From the UHGV virus genome UHGV-0137727: DNA of 17,390 nucleotides, one strand, 5' to 3'. Positions 1-16,531 of the stretch are shown one piece after another; position 1 is the stretch's first letter; each line of letters starts with the position of its first letter. The position numbers and the translations under genes are program-made. The notes under the pieces were generated by a model. The model saw only the letters and a list, made by a program, of their open reading frames with translations. It ran no database searches and was not told where the DNA came from. The DNA comes from a virus.

Positions 1-1
1 A

Positions 2-166
2 CCGGGCGGTGATGGTGCAATGGCGATAACTGGCGATGATGATAAAGTTTATTTCGCTTATGTTAGCCATATCAATAACGCCGCTGGTTTGTATATTTAT
101 CGCATAGTGCATGATTTCCGTGAGATCGCGGAGTTTTGCGCCCGCGAAGGCAGTAAACCGGAATAA
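2..166 (+). CDS. 3' end of an upstream gene (partial, hypothetical protein)
   Basis: Open frame runs from the window edge to TAA at 164-166 (…GLYIYRIVHDFREIAEFCAREGSKPE*). Next gene starts 11 nt downstream with an SD. No recognisable motif. Confidence 0.35.
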   Translation, partial: PGGDGAMAITGDDDKVYFAYVSHINNAAGLYIYRIVHDFREIAEFCAREGSKPE

Positions 167-176
167 GTGAGGTGCT

Positions 177-416
177 ATGAATCGGAAACATAGATACCAG
201 TGCACATACTCACGATGCAGCGCGTTTTTTAAGAATGGCAAGATCTACGAGGTTGACGCGGCATTGGTTGACGCAAAGGATCAGGAATATATTCATGCCA
301 TTACTGACGACCAGGGGCAGTTATGGCGATTTTATAAGATGGGTTGTGGCACGGCGCTTGTTTATGCGCGTGCTGGTGGTGGTGCTTTTGCTGCGTTTTC
401 GTATGTAGGGGTATGA
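177..416 (+). CDS. hypothetical protein (79 aa)
   Basis: ORF-track ORF. SD GAGGTG at 168-173 precedes ATG 177. Stop overlaps the next start (ATGA). Gly/Ala-rich C-terminus. Confidence 0.55.
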   Translation: MNRKHRYQCTYSRCSAFFKNGKIYEVDAALVDAKDQEYIHAITDDQGQLWRFYKMGCGTALVYARAGGGAFAAFSYVGV

Positions 417-637
417 AAATGATTTTAACGTGTAACGAATCGAAATTGGGCTGTTTTGAGGAAGGCGTACAGTACACGGCTGAAAAACCGATGGGATTGT
501 CTCCTAAATTTCCGTTTATCGTCGTGACTGACACTTACGGTCACTTATGGTATGCAGGGCCGCTAGGCGGTATTGGTCGTTATGTTGTCCGTAGTTCGGA
601 TGGGGCGATGAAGGTTACTTTTACGGAAGAAGCATAA
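413..637 (+). CDS. hypothetical protein (74 aa)
   Basis: In frame with track ORF 344..637 but the start is placed at ATG 413 (MKMILTCNE…), overlapping the upstream stop as ATGA (translational coupling). The Cys/Trp-rich 344 extension has no SD and is judged spurious. Confidence 0.55.
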   Translation: MKMILTCNESKLGCFEEGVQYTAEKPMGLSPKFPFIVVTDTYGHLWYAGPLGGIGRYVVRSSDGAMKVTFTEEA

Positions 638-662
638 ATGTGATCTACCCTTCAAAGTTTAC

Positions 663-692
663 AAAATGGCATTGTTCTGGTGGCGCCATTTT
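663..692 (+). terminator. hairpin (8 bp stem AAAATGGC/GCCATTTT, 14 nt loop) followed by a T-rich tract; possible weak terminator or attenuator
   Basis: Inverted repeat read directly, lying between the stop at 637 and the SD of the gene at 736. The stem is AT-rich, so termination efficiency is doubtful. Confidence 0.25.
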
Positions 693-735
693 GTTATAAA
701 GAAGCTGAAGAGAGAACGATGCGGAGGGTAGAAAA

Positions 736-1008
736 ATGAAACGCTGGATTAACGAAGAAACAAAAGCCCGCTTCAATGCAATTTGGGATCTGATTGAAAA
801 AGAGGACGGCGTTTCTAGTCCCTACCTGAACAATCTTGAGTTCCACTATGTAGAAGCGATGAACGCAGAGCATGACCACCAAGTCGGTGCTGATGAATTC
901 GCCAAAAAATACGGCTTCGATGATGCAAACCATATGATTAACAACGTGGTGATGCAGGCAGAGGAAGACTACGAATGCAAATCACTTGAATTCGCACGTA
1001 TGGCATAA
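736..1008 (+). CDS. hypothetical protein (90 aa)
   Basis: ORF-track ORF. Strong SD GGAGGG at 723-728, 7 nt before ATG 736. Confidence 0.6.
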   Translation: MKRWINEETKARFNAIWDLIEKEDGVSSPYLNNLEFHYVEAMNAEHDHQVGADEFAKKYGFDDANHMINNVVMQAEEDYECKSLEFARMA

Positions 1009-1018
1009 GGGGGAAACC

Positions 1019-1159
1019 ATGAACGCTAACGCTAAATATCCGGCCTGGGTTTTCGAACTGTACGCAAGATACTTTGAATTACTGGCACAAGGTGAAGAAG
1101 CATTAAGCATTGACGAGTACGCGGAGTGCTTAGGGTTTAAAGGAGGCGAAGAAGCATAA
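1019..1159 (+). CDS. small hypothetical protein (46 aa)
   Basis: Not in the ORF track (under 60 aa). ATG 1019 is preceded by SD AAGGGGG. Translates MNANAKYPAWVFELYARYFELLAQGEEALSIDEYAECLGFKGGEEA*. Fills an otherwise unexplained gap between flanking genes. Confidence 0.5.
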   Translation: MNANAKYPAWVFELYARYFELLAQGEEALSIDEYAECLGFKGGEEA

Positions 1160-1202
1160 AACACGGGGCAGGATGGCCCCATCAAATCAGAAGGGTGTAA
1201 TC

Positions 1203-1502
1203 ATGAAAAGCGCTAAATTTATTGCTTGCTGTTTTGTTGAAGTTCCTAACGATGATGTTTTCTGTAATTATGAATTTAAAGACAGCTTAGGCAGATCTCA
1301 CATTGTTGTTGGCAAACGTGGTGACTGGTTATATATCACTGATGGAGACAGGATCTTCACTAAAAACCAGTTGTTAATAATAAAGTCAAAAAATGATGAA
1401 ATACAGGTCGGTATTATGGGGATCATAAGTTATCACGCCAGTTTATTGTTAAAACACGATGTGGTAAATAAAGCGCGTAGCTTACCTGGTGCTGAATTTT
1501 AA
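1203..1502 (+). CDS. hypothetical protein (100 aa from ATG 1203; the frame is open from ATG 1173)
   Basis: ORF-track ORF 1173..1502. The internal ATG 1203 has the better SD (AAGGGTG, about 6 nt spacing). Start is uncertain between 1173 and 1203. Confidence 0.55.
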   Translation: MKSAKFIACCFVEVPNDDVFCNYEFKDSLGRSHIVVGKRGDWLYITDGDRIFTKNQLLIIKSKNDEIQVGIMGIISYHASLLLKHDVVNKARSLPGAEF

Positions 1503-1525
1503 TTCCTTACGAAGGAGAATAATCA

Positions 1526-1849
1526 ATGTCTAAATTTATCAGTGTTAAAGTTTTCCGTGGATCTTTTCCAGAAGATAAAGAAATTGGACAATTCGCAGGT
1601 AAACGCGGCGCATGTTTCCGTGTGGCTACTGAAGACGACGCGCACGTTAAACGCTTCCACGTATCTGAACCGCCTTTTGACGCAGACCATCTTGAAGACC
1701 TGGATAGAATTAAAAGCCTAGTTTTTGCCTATCTGATGTTCCAGGGTATCGCTGATATGGAAGTGGAATTGCTTGGCGCTGAACTGGTTGCAGAATACAA
1801 AATGACTGAAGCAGAAAACAGAGGGGTTGAAATTGAGCGCATCAAATAA
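1526..1849 (+). CDS. hypothetical protein (107 aa)
   Basis: ORF-track ORF. Strong SD AAGGAG upstream of ATG 1526. Confidence 0.6.
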   Translation: MSKFISVKVFRGSFPEDKEIGQFAGKRGACFRVATEDDAHVKRFHVSEPPFDADHLEDLDRIKSLVFAYLMFQGIADMEVELLGAELVAEYKMTEAENRGVEIERIK

Positions 1850-2084
1850 GCTGTATAAAGTCAGATGTAAACGCGAATACCCTGGCTTTACGATTGGTTG
1901 CGAATATCTGGGCCATATTGGGTACGGCCCTTTCGGTGAGTTGGGAATGAATACGATTGACGACGACGGCGACAGCAGGACGCTCGATCTTGATACGGAT
2001 GACTTCGAATATATCCCTCCAGTTACTTACCGTGCCGTAGATGATTTCCTGGCTGAACAAGAAGATGATGAAGAGGATGATTAA
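1833..2084 (+). CDS. hypothetical acidic protein (about 83 aa, TTG start)
   Basis: Track ORF 1827..2084. No in-frame ATG near the 5' end; TTG at 1833 sits 6 nt after GAGGGG. Overlaps the 3' end of the upstream gene in another frame. Strongly acidic C-terminus (EQEDDEEDD). Confidence 0.4.
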   Translation: MSASNKLYKVRCKREYPGFTIGCEYLGHIGYGPFGELGMNTIDDDGDSRTLDLDTDDFEYIPPVTYRAVDDFLAEQEDDEEDD

Positions 2085-2086
2085 CT

Positions 2087-2227
2087 ATGGATGACGAATA
2101 CGTTAACAATTTTATTGTTATGTTTCTTAGTGAGAACTGGCGCATGTTTGAACATTATTGTTTTGAGCGCGGGGAAAATGCTGAAGAAATCTATCAATAT
2201 TTAGGCGGGGAGAAAGAGGATGATTGA
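2087..2227 (+). CDS. small hypothetical protein (46 aa)
   Basis: Not in the ORF track. ATG 2087 with SD GAGGA 9 nt upstream. Translates MDDEYVNNFIVMFLSENWRMFEHYCFERGENAEEIYQYLGGEKEDD*. Its 3' end overlaps the start of the next gene by 8 nt. Confidence 0.45.
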   Translation: MDDEYVNNFIVMFLSENWRMFEHYCFERGENAEEIYQYLGGEKEDD

Positions 2228-2420
2228 ATGTCTTATCTTTGCTGTATTTCTCCTTTATATCGCTGGCGCTATCCTGATGTCTTGTTTCATCAAATGTAAC
2301 GATCTCGATCGTGGTGGCCTTGAGATTCCTTTCTGGCCTGTAGCGGTGTTTATCGCTTTCTTCGGTGCAACGCTAGTGCAGATTAAGCGAGCCATTAAGG
2401 AGCGTAAAAATGGGAAATAG
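2220..2420 (+). CDS. small membrane protein (66 aa, two predicted hydrophobic helices)
   Basis: ORF-track ORF with SD GGGGAGAAAGAGG upstream. Hydrophobic stretches CLIFAVFLLYIAGAILMSCFI and IPFWPVAVFIAFFGATLV, basic C-terminus. Confidence 0.55.
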   Translation: MIECLIFAVFLLYIAGAILMSCFIKCNDLDRGGLEIPFWPVAVFIAFFGATLVQIKRAIKERKNGK

Positions 2421-2634
2421 CGACCATCAATATGACGGCGTTTATCAGTCATTGGTGTCACGCGCTTATTATCGCCTTGAAGGTGAACACGTAATGATGC
2501 GATCACGCCAGTTTGAACCGTGGCATGAAACGGTTTTACCTGTGACAGCGAAAGAAGTTATCACGATGTTTAATCACGGACATTGGAGCAAGATTGGCGA
2601 TATTAAGTTCAGGATGTTTAAAGAGGGCGGTTAA
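2410..2634 (+). CDS. hypothetical protein (74 aa), paralog 1 of a tandem triplet
   Basis: ORF-track ORF with SD AGGAG. Shares DG(V/I)Y … Y-R-(L/V)-EG … W … NG/HG motifs with the next two genes. Confidence 0.6.
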   Translation: MGNSDHQYDGVYQSLVSRAYYRLEGEHVMMRSRQFEPWHETVLPVTAKEVITMFNHGHWSKIGDIKFRMFKEGG

Positions 2635-2817
2635 ATGATTGAAGATGGTATATACGCCGTGAACCTCATTGATGAAATGTTTTACCGCGTGGAGGGTAAT
2701 GATATTCGTATCAGTATCGATGGTGGCGAGTGGAAAGAGCCATTCATGGATATGACGCGGGAAATAATTGAAATCATGCTTTATAACGGCGACGTGGTGA
2801 AGGTTAGCGACCTGTGA
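2635..2817 (+). CDS. hypothetical protein (60 aa), paralog 2 of a tandem triplet
   Basis: ORF-track ORF with SD AAAGAGGG. N-terminus MIEDGIY and motif YRVEGNDIRI match the neighbours. Confidence 0.6.
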   Translation: MIEDGIYAVNLIDEMFYRVEGNDIRISIDGGEWKEPFMDMTREIIEIMLYNGDVVKVSDL

Positions 2818-2990
2818 ACGAGATCGAAGATGGCATCTATTTACATAAGGTATTTAACATCGCCTATTTGGTTAGAGGTGAATCGGTGATGATAAGACCT
2901 GATGATGTTCCTTATTGGGAATTAAGCGACATGGATCGGTGGCATATGCAAACATTGCTTGATAATGGCCTGATATATAGAAAGCCGTAA
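2814..2990 (+). CDS. hypothetical protein (58 aa, GTG start), paralog 3 of a tandem triplet
   Basis: Not in the ORF track. GTG 2814 overlaps the upstream stop (GTGA). Translates VNEIEDGIYLHKVFNIAYLVRGESVMIRPDDVPYWELSDMDRWHMQTLLDNGLIYRKP*. The IEDGIY N-terminus matching paralog 2 supports both the gene and the GTG start. Confidence 0.5.
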   Translation: MNEIEDGIYLHKVFNIAYLVRGESVMIRPDDVPYWELSDMDRWHMQTLLDNGLIYRKP

Positions 2991-2998
2991 CGCCGTAT

Positions 2999-3027
2999 TT
3001 GTAGGTCGTAAACAAACAGATTAAAAT
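2999..3027 (+). promoter_or_regulatory. candidate sigma70-type promoter (-35 TTGTAG, 17 nt spacer, -10 TAAAAT)
   Basis: Hexamers read directly from the sequence. Lies just upstream of a terminator hairpin and the lysis cassette. Not validated. Confidence 0.3.
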
Positions 3028-3055
3028 ATTCTCTAACAATGCGAAACTATAACTA

Positions 3056-3077
3056 CCCGGCCCCGCGCCGGGTTTTT
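3056..3077 (+). terminator. rho-independent terminator (stem CCCGGC/GCCGGG, loop CCCGC, then TTTTT)
   Basis: GC-rich hairpin followed by a T-run, 20 nt upstream of the holin start. Confidence 0.55.
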
Positions 3078-3097
3078 GCTTTGTTGGAGGAAAATCT

Positions 3098-3298
3098 ATG
3101 TTCGACAGAATACGGGAGGCGTGCGCGTATGTGACTGGGGCCGTAACTGCTTTTTTCGGCGCGATAACCATCAATGATATTGCCGTCTTTGTGGGTATCT
3201 TATCAACCGTAGGCACATTTGCCGTTAACTATTACTTCAAATCACAGGAGAACAAGCGGGCGCAAGAGGAACACGACGCGCGAATGGGGAATAAGTAA
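3098..3298 (+). CDS. holin, class II / pinholin-like (66 aa, two TMDs)
   Basis: SD GGAGG 7 nt before ATG. Two hydrophobic helices and a charged C-terminal tail (KSQENKRAQEEHDARMGNK). Immediately precedes the endolysin start (TAAATG). Pairing with a SAR endolysin is typical of pinholins. Confidence 0.7.
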   Translation: MFDRIREACAYVTGAVTAFFGAITINDIAVFVGILSTVGTFAVNYYFKSQENKRAQEEHDARMGNK

Positions 3299-3787
3299 AT
3301 GATTAGCCAATCGCTGAAAAACAAGATTGTTGCGGCGGCTGGTGGGGCGATCGCTATTGCGGCGGTGATGATAAAAGATCTTGAAGGCGTTGAGTATAAG
3401 CCATACAGAGATGTCATCGGTGTTTACACGATATGTTATGGACACGTCGGAAAAGACATCATGCTTGGTAAGACTTACACGCAATCAGAATGCGATGCTT
3501 TATTAAATAAAGATCTACACAAGACCGCAAAAGCGATTGACCCATATATCAAAGTCGAAATATCAGATTTTACCCGCGCAGCACTTTATTCATTCGCCTA
3601 TAACGTAGGCGCTACCAACTTCAAAACATCAACCTTACTAAAACTACTCAATGACGGCAAGAAATCAGAAGCGTGCGCACAGCTTAAACGCTGGGTATAC
3701 GCTGGCGGTAAGAAGTGGCAAGGCCTGGTAAACCGCCGCGAGGTTGAATATGCCGTTTGCGAATGGGGGGAAACGTGGACAAGGTGA
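3299..3787 (+). CDS. SAR endolysin (glycoside hydrolase family 24 lysozyme with N-terminal signal-anchor-release domain)
   Basis: N-terminal Gly/Ala-rich weak [19 protein letters not shown]. Catalytic spacing E29-x8-D38-x5-T44 ([23 protein letters not shown]) is characteristic of T4-type lysozymes. From memory the protein closely resembles the phage P21 R21 SAR endolysin. Confidence 0.9.
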
Positions 3788-4245
3788 AGGCGTTAATTAT
3801 CGCCGCTGTTGTTTGCATTATTGCCGGACTGACCGCCGTAACATGTTATTACCAGGGTGAGGCGGCAAGGTTACAGGAAGAAGTCACGGTAACGAAAGGC
3901 GCACTGAAAACGGCAAGTAACACTATTCAGCAGATGAAGGAGCGAAACGCCGAACTGTCAAAACTTGATAAGAGGTATCACGATGAGATTAAAGCTATCA
4001 GATCTGACATTGCCGATCTGCGCACTGGCATTGATAACGGCACTATCAGGCTGCGCGTCAACGCAATACCCGTGCGAGTGTCCGACTCCGCCGAATCCGC
4101 CAGCCGCATTGATGGAGCCTCCTGTAGACTCACTCCCGACGCTGAATCGGCTTATCTATCCCTCAGAGAACAACTAAAAACGAAAGACGCTCAGATTACT
4201 GGTCTTCAGGACTACATCAAAACTCAGTGCTTACGCAAAGAATAA
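3757..4245 (+). CDS. Rz: i-spanin (Rz-like)
   Basis: Sits directly after the endolysin. N-terminal [24 protein letters not shown] followed by a charged, coiled-coil-like periplasmic domain. Contains an embedded lipoprotein gene in the +1 frame. The exact start (ATG 3757/3763 or GTG 3775/3784) is uncertain. Confidence 0.75.
3983..4177 (+). CDS. Rz1: o-spanin (Rz1-like outer-membrane lipoprotein), embedded in Rz in the +1 frame
   Basis: ATG 3983 with SD AGAGGT 6 nt upstream. Signal peptide [23 protein letters not shown] with lipobox LSGC. Proline-rich mature part ([18 protein letters not shown]). Lies wholly inside the Rz ORF. Confidence 0.75.
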   Translation: MRLKLSDLTLPICALALITALSGCASTQYPCECPTPPNPPAALMEPPVDSLPTLNRLIYPSENN

Positions 4246-4523
4246 CAGCGCGTGGACGTGTCGCCGTTTCTGCCAGCCAGCCATAACCAGGCCAATCCTT
4301 CCCGCGAGCGACGGCGGAAATTCAAAAACACGTAATACCGGATCAACAGTCCCATTAACAGGTCAGGCGCTACCTGGGTAGAAGAAAGCGCCACCCACCT
4401 ATTTTATAAAATTCTGAAAACGGTACTCATGCAGCGCCGTTTTTAGTGTTTTATAGCTGTTTTCACTCCCTGCGGTGTCGAGTTTTGCGGGGGTTATATT
4501 TTTCAGAATAGGAGATTATTCTG

Positions 4524-5066
4524 ATGGCTAAGGCTAAAGGCATTAAGTTGCCTCACTTCAAGATCCCGCTTTTTGAGCATACCACTGTTTTCTTTTGCCC
4601 GACCCGCGAGATGTTCTATGAATTTTGCGAAAAGGCAGGAATTCCGATTGAACCTGATTTCGAGTTGGCTGGAGGATTAACGCTTACTTGCACTGGCGAG
4701 AATGGTGGTAACTTCTACGTGATCGCAGTATTCAACAATGAGTTGGGAACGCTGGTCCATGAATGCGCCCACACTACATTCCACGTTTTAAGTGATGTAG
4801 GCGTCGTGGCTACCACGGATCCTACCCATCCGGCGAATGAGACTTACGCTTACATGGTAGACCGTATCTTCGATGCGTTTTTCCCTATCATAGCAGAATC
4901 AAACGAAGCACAGGTTGCAGCAATGCAGGCGGCAGAAGTCGTCGATCAGGCGCTGGAACAGGCAGAACAGCCGAAGGAAGAGGAAAAACCCGCGAAGAAA
5001 GGCAAACGTAAGCCCAAAGCAAAAGAAGCGTATGTGCCGCGCGTAATGAGCTTTAAACGAGGCTGA
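4524..5066 (+). CDS. putative zinc-metallopeptidase-like protein (HExxH motif) with lysine-rich basic C-terminal tail
   Basis: ORF-track ORF with SD AGGAG 9 nt upstream. Motif LVHECAHTTFH (H79-E-x-x-H83) with a downstream Glu (ANETYAY) as candidate third ligand. C-terminus EEEKPAKKGKRKPKAKEAYVPR. Family not identified. Confidence 0.65.
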   Translation: MAKAKGIKLPHFKIPLFEHTTVFFCPTREMFYEFCEKAGIPIEPDFELAGGLTLTCTGENGGNFYVIAVFNNELGTLVHECAHTTFHVLSDVGVVATTDPTHPANETYAYMVDRIFDAFFPIIAESNEAQVAAMQAAEVVDQALEQAEQPKEEEKPAKKGKRKPKAKEAYVPRVMSFKRG

Positions 5067-5068
5067 TT

Positions 5069-5158
5069 ATGATTGCGTCAATATTAACGTTTATGGGTGG
5101 CGTGGCGTTCGGATTCATTATTTGCCTGTTTATGGTGATTATGTCTATGCGAGGCTGA
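5069..5158 (+). CDS. micro-ORF 1 of hydrophobic peptide array (29 aa)
   Basis: MIASILTFMGGVAFGFIICLFMVIMSMRG*. SD GAGG 7 nt upstream. The junction GAGGCTGATTATG is duplicated at the next ORF. Confidence 0.4.
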   Translation: MIASILTFMGGVAFGFIICLFMVIMSMRG

Positions 5159-5160
5159 TT

Positions 5161-5256
5161 ATGGACGCTTACATCATCGCCGGATTAATTGGTATTTCTG
5201 TATTTCTGGTGAGTTTTGTTATTGCCGTACTGATAACCGTAAAAAGCAAGTATTAG
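5161..5256 (+). CDS. micro-ORF 2 of hydrophobic peptide array (31 aa)
   Basis: MDAYIIAGLIGISVFLVSFVIAVLITVKSKY*. SD GAGG 6 nt upstream. Single hydrophobic helix with basic C-terminus. Confidence 0.4.
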   Translation: MDAYIIAGLIGISVFLVSFVIAVLITVKSKY

Positions 5257-5269
5257 ATGGGGTGGCAAG

Positions 5270-5344
5270 ATGATTGACCCGCTAATTATCCTTTCTGCCT
5301 GCGTCGCTGTATGGCTGGCGATCATGATATTCATTGAAAGCTGA
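5270..5344 (+). CDS. micro-ORF 3 of hydrophobic peptide array (24 aa)
   Basis: MIDPLIILSACVAVWLAIMIFIES*. G-rich SD-like sequence GGGGTGG upstream. Confidence 0.35.
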   Translation: MIDPLIILSACVAVWLAIMIFIES

Positions 5345-5437
5345 AGGTATTCACCATAAATATTTACGATCTCATCTGGTGGTCGTTGGTCGCCGTCATT
5401 ATCTATTTCTGGTGGAAGAATGTTGTATAGGTGAAGC

Positions 5438-5518
5438 ATGAACGCATACGAAATGCTATTGCTGGTGGCTGTTATTACAGTTATTGCCGTAGATGTTTAT
5501 CGGGAGTTTAAAAAATGA
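5438..5518 (+). CDS. micro-ORF 4 of hydrophobic peptide array (26 aa)
   Basis: MNAYEMLLLVAVITVIAVDVYREFKK*. Upstream AGGTGAAGC-ATGAACGC is repeated at micro-ORF 6. Stop overlaps the next start (ATGA). Confidence 0.4.
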   Translation: MNAYEMLLLVAVITVIAVDVYREFKK

Positions 5519-7816: not shown

Positions 7817-7835
7817 CTTCGAAAAATTTTCGAAG
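7817..7835. repeat. near-perfect 19 bp palindrome CTTCGAAAAATTTTCGAAG, with an adjacent inverted repeat TTGAT-N4-ATCAA at 7803-7816
   Basis: Read directly from the sequence, in the 148 bp AT-rich gap between terL and the portal gene. Confidence 0.5.
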
Positions 7836-7946
7836 ATGAACAATAATAATTCTCAATTAGCTACACAAAATCTGCCTCACAATCCCTCACGAATTTTTCT
7901 ATTTTTCGCGTAGCAACGCGTAAACATGTATTCAGGAGTAAACATT

Positions 7947-9320
7947 ATGCCATCCAATTTAGAATTGGCGGTTAATGCTGCCTTGTCTCAACGCCAGGCG
8001 GCCTTTGCCCGCTATGCAGCGGCACATCCGTTCACTATGGGGATAGATGCCAAACGTGATGCTGCGTGGAGTGAATACGGATTTAAAGAAGAAATCACCT
8101 ATGCCGATTTATACAAACTGTATCGTCGCGGTGGTATCGCTCACGGTGCTATTGAGAAGATCATTACTACGTGCTGGCGCACCAGGCCAACGCTGATTGA
8201 AGGTACGGAAGACGAGAAAGCGGAAAAGGAAACTTCGTGGGAAAGAGAAATCAAAAAACGATTCGACAATAGATTCTGGCGCGTAATTGCTGAATGCGAT
8301 CGCCGCCGCCTCATCGGTCGTTATGCTGGACTGTTAATTCACGTCAGGGATAACAAGCCGTGGGATCAGCCAGTAACAAAAGGCGTAGGCATTGCCAAAT
8401 TTACCCCCGTATGGGCTGGTGCTCTTACACCGAAGGACTTCGAAGAAAACCCGGATAAAGAAAACTATGGCCTGCCTACATGGTGGGAATACAAGGAGCG
8501 CATTAACAGTAAGACCATAGCAAGAAAGATACATCCAGATCGCATATTTATCTTCGGTGATTATTCTGATGATGCCATCGCTTTCCTTGAACCGTCCTAT
8601 AACGCATTCGTTTCACTGGAGAAAGTGGAAGGCGGCAGCGGTGAATCATTCCTGAAAAACGCAGCACGTCAACTGGCTATCTCGTTCGATAAAGAGATTG
8701 ATTTCCGTTCCCTGGCTGCAACATACGGTTGCGACGTTACAGAGCTACGCGAAAAATTCAATGAAGCGGCAGAGGATATAAATAAAGGTAATGATGTGAT
8801 GATGGCATTGCAGGGAGCTACCGTTAGCCCGCTGGTTACTGCCGTAGCCGATCCGTCCGCTACCTATGACGTCAACCTGCAAACCGCCGCCGCTGGCATC
8901 GACATTCCAACGCGTATCCTGGTTGGGAATCAGCAGGGTGAGCGTGCATCAACCGAAGACCTCCGCTACTTCAATAACCGCTGTATGACCCGCCGGGAGG
9001 AAATAGGAGGCGAGCTTGAGGAACTATTCCGCAAGATGGCAGATCTCCGCCTTATCAGTATGCCAGTAGACGTATCTGTGCTGTGGGACGACCTTAACGC
9101 CATGACAAAAGCTGAGCTACTCGACGCGGCATACAAAATGGCACAAATCAATCATGCATGTCTCGCTACTGGTGAGGAAATATTCAGCGGTGACGAGATC
9201 CGTGAAGCTGCCGGATACGATGGCCCGGCTAATGAAGTAGAACTGGAAGACGAGGAAAACGATGATGAAGGTGAAGAAAATAATCAGGCGAATACCTCCA
9301 GCCGCGATAATGCCATCTAA
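7947..9320 (+). CDS. portal protein (putative)
   Basis: ATG 7947 with SD AGGAG 8 nt upstream (track ORF opens at 7926). About 457 aa, directly downstream of terL and upstream of a minor head protein. Acidic C-terminus (ELEDEENDDEGEEN). Assigned by synteny, not by a recognised motif. Confidence 0.65.
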   Translation: MPSNLELAVNAALSQRQAAFARYAAAHPFTMGIDAKRDAAWSEYGFKEEITYADLYKLYRRGGIAHGAIEKIITTCWRTRPTLIEGTEDEKAEKETSWEREIKKRFDNRFWRVIAECDRRRLIGRYAGLLIHVRDNKPWDQPVTKGVGIAKFTPVWAGALTPKDFEENPDKENYGLPTWWEYKERINSKTIARKIHPDRIFIFGDYSDDAIAFLEPSYNAFVSLEKVEGGSGESFLKNAARQLAISFDKEIDFRSLAATYGCDVTELREKFNEAAEDINKGNDVMMALQGATVSPLVTAVADPSATYDVNLQTAAAGIDIPTRILVGNQQGERASTEDLRYFNNRCMTRREEIGGELEELFRKMADLRLISMPVDVSVLWDDLNAMTKAELLDAAYKMAQINHACLATGEEIFSGDEIREAAGYDGPANEVELEDEENDDEGEENNQANTSSRDNAI

Positions 9321-13026: not shown

Positions 13027-13046
13027 TTGATATGTTTCCTGTAACT

Positions 13047-13073
13047 CCCCGGCGCGATGCCGGGGATTTTTTT
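13047..13073 (+). terminator. rho-independent terminator (stem CCCCGGC/GCCGGGG, loop GCGAT, then ATTTTTTT)
   Basis: Read directly; 21 nt after the capsid gene stop. Confidence 0.7.
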
Positions 13074-15367: not shown

Positions 15368-15374
15368 ACAATAA

Positions 15375-15400
15375 GGGGGCTATTTAGCCCCCTTTCTTTT
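15375..15400 (+). terminator. rho-independent terminator (stem GGGGGCT/AGCCCCC, loop ATTT, then TTTCTTTT)
   Basis: Read directly; 8 nt after the major tail protein stop. Confidence 0.65.
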
Positions 15401-15412
15401 AGGGTGAAGACT

Positions 15413-16090
15413 ATGATTCATGTTCGTACCGGACAATTTGTGGCTATGGTGAACGGTAAGCGCTATGAATTTAACCCGTGTTTCGCTGCGATGGCTAAAA
15501 TCGGTAATGACAGGGAGCTTGTGGAATATTTCGCAACCATCCACGGTAGCAAATACCCTTCACGATTACCTACAGATCCAGACCTCCGCAATCGCATTAT
15601 GGCGCGGTGTTATGGTGGGATAGTGCAAACGTCAATGCACATCCTGAAATGTTGCTCAGACGACGAAACAGGCCCGTTATTGGGCGAATGCTGGTTTACT
15701 CCTTCGGGCAAATTAAGGTTAAAGCCCGGAATAATGCCAGTTGATGATGTTATTACGCTGGCGCAACACTGCATGTACCACGGTTTAATCGGTGACGGGC
15801 CGGAAGAAAATACAAGCGAGATCCGGGAAGGTGAATACAAGCCGACATTTGATGTACTTGATTTCGTTTATTCTGCCGTTGCTCATCTGGGATTATCTGA
15901 ATCAGAAGCGTGGAACATGACAATGACCGGATACAGGGCCGCAGTGCGCGCTAAAACGCCGCCAGACGAAAGAAATGAAAGAAGTAGACCAAATGTTCAC
16001 ATAAATAAACGTGCTTATGACGAGCAAATGGAGGCTGCTAAAAAGGCGCTAAAAAGAATGGAAAATCGCAAGCAAGAAAAAGCCCGGTAG
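15413..16090 (+). CDS. tail assembly chaperone (putative)
   Basis: ATG 15413 with SD GGGTGAAG (track start GTG 15404). Lies between major tail protein and tape measure. Charged C-terminus. No slippery heptamer or frameshift partner ORF was identified. Confidence 0.45.
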   Translation: MIHVRTGQFVAMVNGKRYEFNPCFAAMAKIGNDRELVEYFATIHGSKYPSRLPTDPDLRNRIMARCYGGIVQTSMHILKCCSDDETGPLLGECWFTPSGKLRLKPGIMPVDDVITLAQHCMYHGLIGDGPEENTSEIREGEYKPTFDVLDFVYSAVAHLGLSESEAWNMTMTGYRAAVRAKTPPDERNERSRPNVHINKRAYDEQMEAAKKALKRMENRKQEKAR

Positions 16091-16098
16091 ATCCGGGC
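16082..16098. terminator. bidirectional intrinsic terminator (stem GCCCGG/CCGGGC, loop TAGAT), A-run upstream and T-rich downstream
   Basis: The hairpin contains the chaperone stop codon. On the minus strand it is followed by TTTTTCTT, 8 nt after the stop of the reverse-strand gene. Convergent transcription ends here. Confidence 0.55.
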
Positions 16099-16105
16099 GT
16101 TTGTC

Positions 16106-16531
16106 TTATTTGATTCTAACAATATCAATAAAACCGTTACCTAAATCGACAATTGCGTGATTTTTTGCACCAGCGCCGCCTTTATTAAAAATTCTTTCAG
16201 CGAAAGCAACTTTATTTGCTTTACACTCGTTAGCTATCCTGTTTTTTATTTCGCTGTTGTTTTCAAAGACTACGCCTACAGCAGCCTCGTTTACAAGGCC
16301 ATAATTAAACCAACGAGCATAAACTGGTTTACCTTCAAAATTTTTATCAATTGCCTTAAAAAGAATTGTGGGTGCGGCTGGTTCTTTTTTGATCATGTCG
16401 TGATATGCGGCTACATGGTTTGCCACTTCTTCACAGTTAATGTTTATGGCCTCGTTAGCGTTAGCGTTAGCGTTAAATGCTAGTGCAGCAATCACAGCAA
16501 GCACCATTTTTGCTAACCGTTTCATAATCAA
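16106..16531 (-). CDS. secreted/periplasmic protein of unknown function (141 aa, N-terminal signal peptide)
   Basis: ORF-track ORF on the minus strand. SD AGGGGG lies 6 nt before the second ATG (16523-16525), the more likely start. Signal peptide MKRLAKMVLAVIAALAFNANANAN with repeated AxA cleavage motifs. Two Cys in the mature part. Opposite in orientation to all flanking structural genes. Confidence 0.7.
   Translation of the reverse strand: MIMKRLAKMVLAVIAALAFNANANANEAININCEEVANHVAAYHDMIKKEPAAPTILFKAIDKNFEGKPVYARWFNYGLVNEAAVGVVFENNSEIKNRIANECKANKVAFAERIFNKGGAGAKNHAIVDLGNGFIDIVRIK
16454..16475. repeat. tandem hexanucleotide repeat (GTTAGC on +, AACGCT on -), about 3.7 copies, encoding (Asn-Ala)n
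   Basis: Read directly. Lies inside the signal-peptide/cleavage region of the minus-strand gene. The unit length of 6 preserves frame. Confidence 0.6.

Follow-up and report, generated by a model that had tools for sequence, protein, structure and literature searches.

The cassette through which Q acts has been defined as a promoter (PR′), a sigma-dependent pause element (SDPE) and a terminator, and the Q-binding site as 13 bp contacted at positions 1–4 and 11–13 (PMC9388147). In lambda, AACGAT at +1 to +6 is the sigma-dependent pause element, and the pause occurs at +16 (PMC4005639). Stx phages follow the plan that we propose below for a gut coliphage: in lysogens, transcription from a constitutive late promoter stops shortly after the promoter and yields a short RNA as by-product, and the 258-nt pR′–tR′ transcript, StxS, is processed to a 74-nt Hfq-binding sRNA (PMC7547250). 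For the mEpimmI group of coliphages, N-like early antitermination that relies on host Nus factors, as in lambda, has been described; the promoter, pause element and Q site considered here are not part of that account (PMC11893012).

We analysed a stretch of viral DNA of 17,390 nt, referred to as the window. Judging from its sequence, the window derives from an mEp021-like (mEpimmI) temperate coliphage: the mEpimmI coliphages mEp021, mEp010, mEp013, mEp515, mEp554, mEp044 and MagusPhagus are ~90% identical to the region, and the homologous mEp021 locus (MH706966) is ~91% identical over it. Among 5,426 complete E. coli genomes, 34 had similar prophages; temperate phages of the mEpimmI group are common in gut E. 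coli. The leader studied here (2991–3097) is a 107-base gap between a 58-aa ORF (2814–2990), whose stop codon forms the leader's 5′ edge, and a 66-aa holin gene (3098–3298), which is followed by genes for endolysin, Rz/Rz1, TerS, TerL, portal and head proteins. A tRNA scan found none. The features discussed below are:

2814–2990, + strand: 58-aa ORF, the final small ORF before the leader and third of three tandem paralogues (ORF list; phrog_15318, E 1e-31)
2999–3004, + strand: weak −35-like hexamer TTGTAG, 3/6 consensus, with T1 and G3 invariant (sequence)
3010–3021, + strand: candidate Q-binding element AAACAAACAGAT in the promoter spacer, −25 to −14 (from conservation and position)
3022–3027, + strand: −10 hexamer TAAAAT, 5/6 consensus, invariant in relatives
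3035–3040, + strand: candidate sigma-dependent pause element AACAAT, predicted +1 to +6 (invariant; position of lambda AACGAT; matrix)
3035–3085, + strand: predicted 5′ closing stem of the transcript, 3035–3046 with 3074–3085, around the terminator hairpin (folds)
3055–3073, + strand: terminator hairpin (tR′-like), ACCCGGC-CCCGC-GCCGGGT, 7-bp stem and 5-nt loop (fold, conservation, TERM_5)
3074–3084, + strand: T-tract TTTTTGCTTTG, invariant (sequence)
3086–3090, + strand: Shine-Dalgarno (SD) sequence GGAGG of the holin gene, invariant (sequence)
3098–3298, + strand: holin, 66 aa, HP1 family, first late gene, ATG at 3098 (PF16080, E 1.6e-14)
3299–3787, + strand: endolysin (PF00959, E 4e-44)
3757–4245, + strand: Rz i-spanin with Rz1 embedded at 3965–4177 (PF03245, PF06085)

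We propose that the gap is a compact late cassette of the Q-lambda family, made up of pR′, a Q site, a pause element and tR′, and put the probability of this reading at roughly three in four. It builds on the sequence elements, their conservation, the Q genes of relatives and the promoter grammar of the family, from which a transcription start, a pause, Q binding and Q dependence would follow. Host sigma-70 polymerase would start at ~3034–3035 from TAAAAT, with the weak −35 aiding; sigma would re-bind AACAAT at +1 to +6, and the polymerase would pause near +16/+17. Without Q, it would stop at the hairpin and T-tract and release a ~44–47-nt RNA. Q, a 240-aa lambda-family protein encoded outside the window, would bind the spacer DNA at ~3010–3021 and, probably together with NusA, load onto the paused polymerase; the modified enzyme would ignore this and later terminators to transcribe the holin, endolysin, spanin, packaging and structural genes. 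The terminator (3055–3084) would also end unmodified transcription arriving from the upstream small-gene array. Mechanistically, this is lambda control as known from textbooks, compact and rearranged in layout, and not a new type of control; what is unusual is that Q and its probable loading site lie 2–6.8 kb apart, with variable small genes between them. Q and the terminator are already annotated for the group, and the mEp021 record (MH706966) has the terminator at the same position and Q upstream; the promoter, pause element and Q site are unannotated there. A probable Q-loading site gives a concrete map of the late switch of mEpimmI phages, in which the variable small-gene array lies upstream of the switch.

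Promoter, spacer and pause element

The preliminary description of this DNA had reported a sigma70-like promoter in the leader, and its coordinates were exact (TTGTAG at 2999–3004, a 17-nt spacer, TAAAAT at 3022–3027). For conservation, we assembled leaders from 47 relatives reached via the holin gene and from 19 metagenome loci anchored on the 3′ half of the terminator and the SD. TAAAAT was unchanged in all 40 unique holin-anchored relatives and in 19/19 of the metagenome loci, which were anchored on terminator and SD only. In class A leaders the −35 is TTGTAG, TTGTGG or TTGTTG; class B, with 12 of the 40 unique relatives, has TCGCGC instead. The hexamers of the candidate sigma70-like promoter are thus present and its −10 is invariant, but the −35 is weak and is replaced in ~30% of relatives. 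Because the −35 is unconserved and the 5′ part of class B is unrelated, the conserved unit starts at about −25.

Three blocks never varied in either set, namely AAACAA (3010–3015), GATTAAAATA (3019–3028) and CTAACAATGCGAAA (3033–3046), and the same was true of both stem arms, the T-tract and the SD. Across the leader from 3010 to 3097, pi was 0.053, compared with third-position values of 0.124 for the holin gene and 0.213 for the endolysin gene, although conservation has limited power in a group that is only ~10% divergent. The −10 hexamer is unpaired in the consensus RNA fold; as it lies outside the predicted pairing, RNA structure cannot explain its invariance. Within the spacer, AAACAA and GAT (3019–3021) are invariant and variation is restricted to 3016–3018. 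The candidate element at 3010–3021 occupies the same location as the QBE of lambda, and this bipartite conservation is compatible with the 13-bp Q site (PMC9388147), for which binding here is putative.

By consensus alone, the promoter does not stand out from chance. With 8 of 12 consensus positions matched, it stayed under the threshold of our scanner and was not reported by it; the window as a whole held fewer promoter-like sites than shuffled sequences (13 versus 30.5). Promoter-like sites of equal quality that are followed by a −10-like hexamer number about six on the + strand of the window, and we rejected this tandem −10 pattern, taken alone, as significant evidence because it is at chance level.

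AACAAT begins 7 nt past the −10 and is invariant; with the transcription start predicted at ~3034–3035, it would occupy +1 to +6, and the pause would fall at ~3050–3051 (+16/+17). Comparison of lambda pR′ (TTGACT-17-TAAATT-6-AACGAT) with the window (TTGTAG-17-TAAAAT-7-AACAAT) shows the same 17-nt spacer and AAC[G/A]AT at +1 to +6, with a gap between −10 and pause element of TGACTC in lambda and ATTCTCT in the window. At the level of sequence, AACAAT therefore looks like a pause element of the lambda type.

We scored the window with a weight matrix built from 36 unique Q-adjacent late promoters of other Q-lambda-family phages and zero mEp sequences. Among ~34,750 positions on both strands, the top score was at 3029–3046 (15.3 bits), and the matrix also put the homologous site first in three related sequences (L047, L001 and L002; 4/4 with the window). 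The runner-up (16112–16129, GATTCTAACAATATCAAT, 14.1 bits) lies just past a bidirectional terminator at 16082–16098 and is probably a chance match, since it is without an upstream −10 and is located within the 3′ end of a convergently oriented ORF. Between Q and holin, the only match to '−10 plus AAC[AG]NT' common to 43/43 relatives is 76 nt before the holin ATG. The position of AACAAT and the top matrix rank strengthen the likeness to the lambdoid pR′-qut-tR′ arrangement that had been suggested earlier.

To place the leader within its family, we gathered Q homologues from IMG/VR, with an alignment of four Q proteins. At 55 unique Q-lambda loci outside the mEp group (Q of 207–277 aa), the promoter lies 54–78 nt past the Q stop and is followed by a 5–7-nt gap, a motif of the [CT]TAAC[GA]NT, CAATGAT or CCATGAT type and an intrinsic terminator. 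The same −10/gap/motif/terminator grammar is seen in the mEp leader and in the Q-adjacent cassettes of IMG/VR sequences (L110–L173) and of a Xenorhabdus ehlersii prophage (L071; TTGACA-17-TAAATT-TGACGC-TAATAAT, hairpin at about +34), prophages in which Q has 254–277 aa with enlarged arms and in which a 5′ pause-element stem is likewise found. They differ from the mEp leader in having a good −35 (4–6/6, against 3/6 here) and a complement of the pause element 18–22 nt downstream, before the terminator, whereas here the complement lies beyond it. At the loci outside the mEp group the hairpin starts mostly at +27 to +49, with a minimum of +27 in 35 comparators; in the mEp leader it starts at +21, ~20 nt past the predicted start and nearer than in any of the 35. 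On this evidence, lambda's 194-nt leader is the exception in a family whose leaders are as a rule short.

Compared with lambda itself, the locus shares a Q of family PF03589 and an intrinsic terminator ahead of the first lysis gene. It differs in that Q is 2.0–6.8 kb from the cassette, where lambda has it adjacent; the predicted leader RNA is ~44–47 nt long where lambda's has 194 nt; a 31-aa CxxC-rich insertion is present in Q; the −35 is weak or absent; and the TTGACT −35-like element before the pause element is lacking. A TTGAC-type element of this kind just 5′ of AACAAT is absent from the window leader and present in lambda and the Xenorhabdus relative, and the bases that follow AACAAT are GCG, not GGG. 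Several of these observations count against the cassette reading: a −35 of 3/6 that becomes TCGCGC in 12/40 variants when comparators have 4–6/6, a promoter-plus-pause pattern that recurs about six times on the window's + strand, the 14.1-bit matrix match at 16112, the hairpin at +21, the GCG, the missing TTGAC-type element and a Q gene outside the window.

Terminator and position of the Q gene

The GC-rich intrinsic terminator described earlier was confirmed, with hairpin and T-tract present and, in the 66 relatives, an invariant stem and a variable loop. The hairpin at 3055–3073 has 7 pairs, 6 of them G-C, folds at −13.5 kcal/mol and is among the four strongest terminator-like sites in the window. 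In the 47 holin-anchored and 19 metagenome relatives, the stem pairing was unchanged while the loop varied and included 1-nt indels; the sole stem changes were A-U to G.U and C-G to U.G, and pi was 0.011 for the stem versus 0.225 for the loop. The mEp021 record annotates the same site as TERM_5 (score 100). TERM_5 is likely the t5 of publications, an identification drawn only from the GenBank order of TERM features, and t5 is among the terminators demonstrated experimentally in work on early antitermination (PMC11893012). The terminated RNA is predicted to measure ~44–47 nt, with its 3′ end at ~3078–3081.

The window contains other strong hairpin terminators in the late operon, at 13046–13066, 15373–15394 and 16082–16098, of which one follows the major capsid gene and two are bidirectional. 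A processive antiterminator would need to pass these three.

The preliminary description had found no Q-sized antiterminator gene, a result that proved to be an artefact of the window edge, as relatives encode Q farther upstream. Its statement that the upstream genes are all 109 aa or smaller is correct for ORFs of the window but fails as an argument, since the window holds only 3.1 kb 5′ of the holin gene. No Q homologue was found within the window itself. The IMG/VR contig L047 is 99.3% identical to window positions 1–5518, with window position 1 corresponding to L047 5904, and encodes a 240-aa Q at 1899–2621 (PF03589, E 1.2e-29), which places the gene 3.3 kb to the left of the window and ~6.4 kb 5′ of the holin gene. 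Q was present in 43/43 relatives with enough flank, 2003–6801 nt 5′ of the holin ATG (median 5506), with 8 to ~25 small ORFs between its stop and the holin gene; the closest E. coli prophage, in strain M1/5, has the same Q-to-holin layout. In mEp021, gp37 is annotated as 'putative late gene regulator Q' (240 aa) and lies 2 kb 5′ of the holin gene, with eight small genes between. It matches PF03589 (E 1e-29) and is 35% identical to lambda Q over its full length, with a well-conserved N-terminus and a 31-aa CxxC-rich insertion at the start of lambda Q's zinc-ribbon arm. Through L047 and the 43/43 relatives, the phage can be assigned on homology to the Q-lambda family. Whether a relative had the 240-aa or the 242-aa Q allele showed no correlation with its leader class, A or B.

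The cassette is directly 3′ of Q in 55/55 other family members, and this textbook adjacency does not hold in the mEp group. In mEp021, M1/5 and L047, the ORF that follows Q has a start overlapping the Q stop, leaving no room for a Q-adjacent promoter. A candidate pR′ near Q, inside gp38 (CTGGCA-16-GATAAT-8-TATGTT), was rejected, as its −10 is GATAAC or GACAAC in 14/34 variants and its variation keeps to the codon pattern. In both gp38 and gp39, pi shows codon periodicity: 0.21 at third positions versus 0.02–0.06 elsewhere.

Two minor observations concern the stretch downstream of Q. In 5/43 relatives (L011, L014, L021, L039 and L040), the Q stop codon itself forms part of TAAACT/TAAGAT-GGAAATA-AACGAT, recorded 4 nt after the Q stop; this −10-like hexamer with AACGAT behind it at the 3′ end of Q is not conserved across the group. 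Codons 6–16 of gp39, a conserved small gene between Q and holin, contain a near-invariant hairpin with T-tract (AAGCGGGATAAAACCCGCTTTTTTGTTCG, −11 kcal/mol) at L001 4559–4587 (mEp021 22593–22621), outside the window and unannotated in mEp021. Third-position variation vanishes over ~43 nt at this hairpin, which may be an intragenic terminator or attenuator.

Q acts in trans, so its separation from the cassette alters the layout but leaves the mechanism as it is. A further, tentative possibility is that Q and cassette have been uncoupled by a hypervariable, early-expressed array of 8 to ~25 genes, with the cassette terminator serving as insulator and the short RNA being functional. If so, expression of the small-gene array (2–6.8 kb) would come ahead of the late switch and would not depend on it, and the prophage would constitutively make a 44–47-nt RNA that could have a function, as StxS does, with its 5′ end locked in a stem around the terminator as a local version of the family stem described below.

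Gene content 5′ of the leader differs among relatives while the leader stays constant. In the window, three tandem paralogous ORFs (74, 60 and 58 aa; 2410–2990) all match phrog_15318, of unknown function; the triplet adjoins the leader and looks like a local gene amplification. The small upstream ORFs of the window matched only PHROGs of unknown function, with no Pfam family and no antiterminator family. The 5′ edge of the leader (2991–3009) is a mosaic junction. In E. coli M1/5 and several IMG/VR relatives, GCCGTATTTGT is duplicated and flanks an extra small ORF (L002 8927–8945 and 9176–9195), and in class B leaders (12/40) everything 5′ of ~3010 is replaced by CCATAATCGCGCATAAAAAAC.

The alternative that survives best, although we regard it as unlikely, is that the gap contains a terminator and no functional promoter. 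Here t5/TERM_5 would end the delayed-early rightward operon of Q and small genes, and the late genes would be read by polymerase made resistant elsewhere, by N-like Gp17 at nutR or by Q at another upstream site. This would agree with the tight packing of the Q-to-holin genes on one strand, with the N-like antiterminator, three nut sites and experimentally demonstrated t5 of the group (PMC11893012), and with a poor, unconserved −35 in a promoter pattern that alone is at chance level. However, it leaves the invariant −10 without an RNA-pairing explanation, and the Q-lambda matrix puts the site first in 4/4 sequences. No other conserved −10 with pause element exists between Q and holin, the Q-adjacent candidate not being maintained, and retention of a full-length Q with a conserved N-terminal region implies that a loading site must exist somewhere.

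Structure of the leader RNA

The leader is predicted to fold stably: for 2960–3110, the minimum free energy (MFE) was −42.6 kcal/mol (z −3.4), and 29 pairs of the consensus fold were retained in all 29 variants. The inner stem begins near the predicted +1 (3035), at 3029 in the MFE fold and 3033 in the consensus fold, and this onset of pairing fits a start at 3035. Within the fold, AACAATGCGAAA pairs with the invariant TTTTGCTTTGTT, so RNA structure could account for part of the invariance. In transcripts arriving from upstream, the predicted stem could lengthen to include the SD and AUG, although the outer SD-proximal pairs are mismatched in the majority variant (C3032 opposite A3088). The SD is predicted to be mostly paired, with a mean unpaired probability of ~0.2. 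The idea that it is sequestered only in upstream transcripts found no support, as mean accessibility was 0.19 versus 0.24 and long and short transcripts did not differ consistently. Within the mEp group, covariation in the terminator or extended stem was not available, as the columns are invariant and only wobble changes occur.

A comparable structure was seen elsewhere in the family. Late transcripts of Q-lambda-family phages have a covarying 5′-terminal stem in which pause-element RNA (+1 to +5) pairs with a downstream complement (L110–L173; lambda, L003 788–810; L071). Of 44 unique leaders, 31 had the reverse complement of the pause-element 5-mer downstream, where shuffles gave an expectation of 7.4; it usually lay 18–22 nt away and formed the covarying pairs AACGA/TCGTT, TAACA/TGTTA and AATGA/TCATT. 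The mEp stem (AACAA/TTGTT plus GCGAAA/TTTTGC) appears, from its sequence, to be the local version of this family stem. A targeted literature search found no description of a covarying 5′ stem in Q-lambda-type leaders.

Could the leader be conserved for this structure, with the promoter hexamers incidental? In that case, the stem 3029–3046/3074–3091, with outer pairs to the AUG, would determine how well holin is translated or how stable the mRNA is. We consider this improbable, more so than a terminator without promoter. The stability of the 2960–3110 fold, the 29 pairs kept in 29 variants and the mostly paired SD (~0.2 unpaired) all suit such a role. Against it, covariation is zero with every paired column invariant, the SD-proximal C3032/A3088 pair is mismatched in the majority variant, the −10 is invariant yet unpaired, and the SD is not consistently more accessible in either long or short transcripts. 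The position of the inner stem near the predicted +1, which mirrors the covarying 5′ stem of the Q-lambda family, supports the promoter model instead.

Antitermination without a large protein is known from phage HK022, where put antitermination depends on a folded two-stem RNA and needs no phage protein. Both cases would involve processive antitermination in a lambdoid-like phage, but here such an RNA would not fit into the ~20 nt between the predicted start and the hairpin; no such structure was found; and a Q gene is present in relatives. Folding the leader for a put-like structure gave the terminator and its closing stem as the only stable structure, and an Rfam search of the leader returned none at gathering score, with only chance-level matches at E up to 10. 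The earlier proposal of an unusually small protein encoded just upstream, or of a put-like leader RNA, was prompted by window ORFs of at most 109 aa and unknown function, and we give it almost no credence, given Q in all relatives, ~20 nt from start to hairpin, no Rfam match at gathering score, no antiterminator family among the small ORFs, no stable structure besides the terminator with its closing stem, and an upstream gene content that varies while the leader does not. As this case shows, a regulator that seems 'missing' can simply sit past the window edge.

Early antitermination signals were also considered. A nut-like reading of CTCTAACAATG was rejected, as the boxA of the group's nutR2 is TGCTCTTTAAAAA and the leader shares only TAACAA with it. 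The leader hairpin was likewise rejected as a boxB, its loop (CCCGC) not being A-rich and a T-tract following it.

Observations elsewhere in the window

Two features of the packaging and head region stood apart from the leader. A perfect 9+1+9 palindrome, CTTCGAAAAATTTTCGAAG (7817–7835), lies in the 127 nt that separate the large terminase gene from the portal gene; it is also found in relatives and looks like an operator. The 464-aa protein encoded at 7926–9320 (L002 14162–15486) is a portal protein (PF06381, E 1.4e-17) and is annotated as portal in mEp021; its homologues in E. coli M1/5 and KKa019 carry the RefSeq name 'anti-CBASS protein Acb1 family protein', apparently a misannotation.
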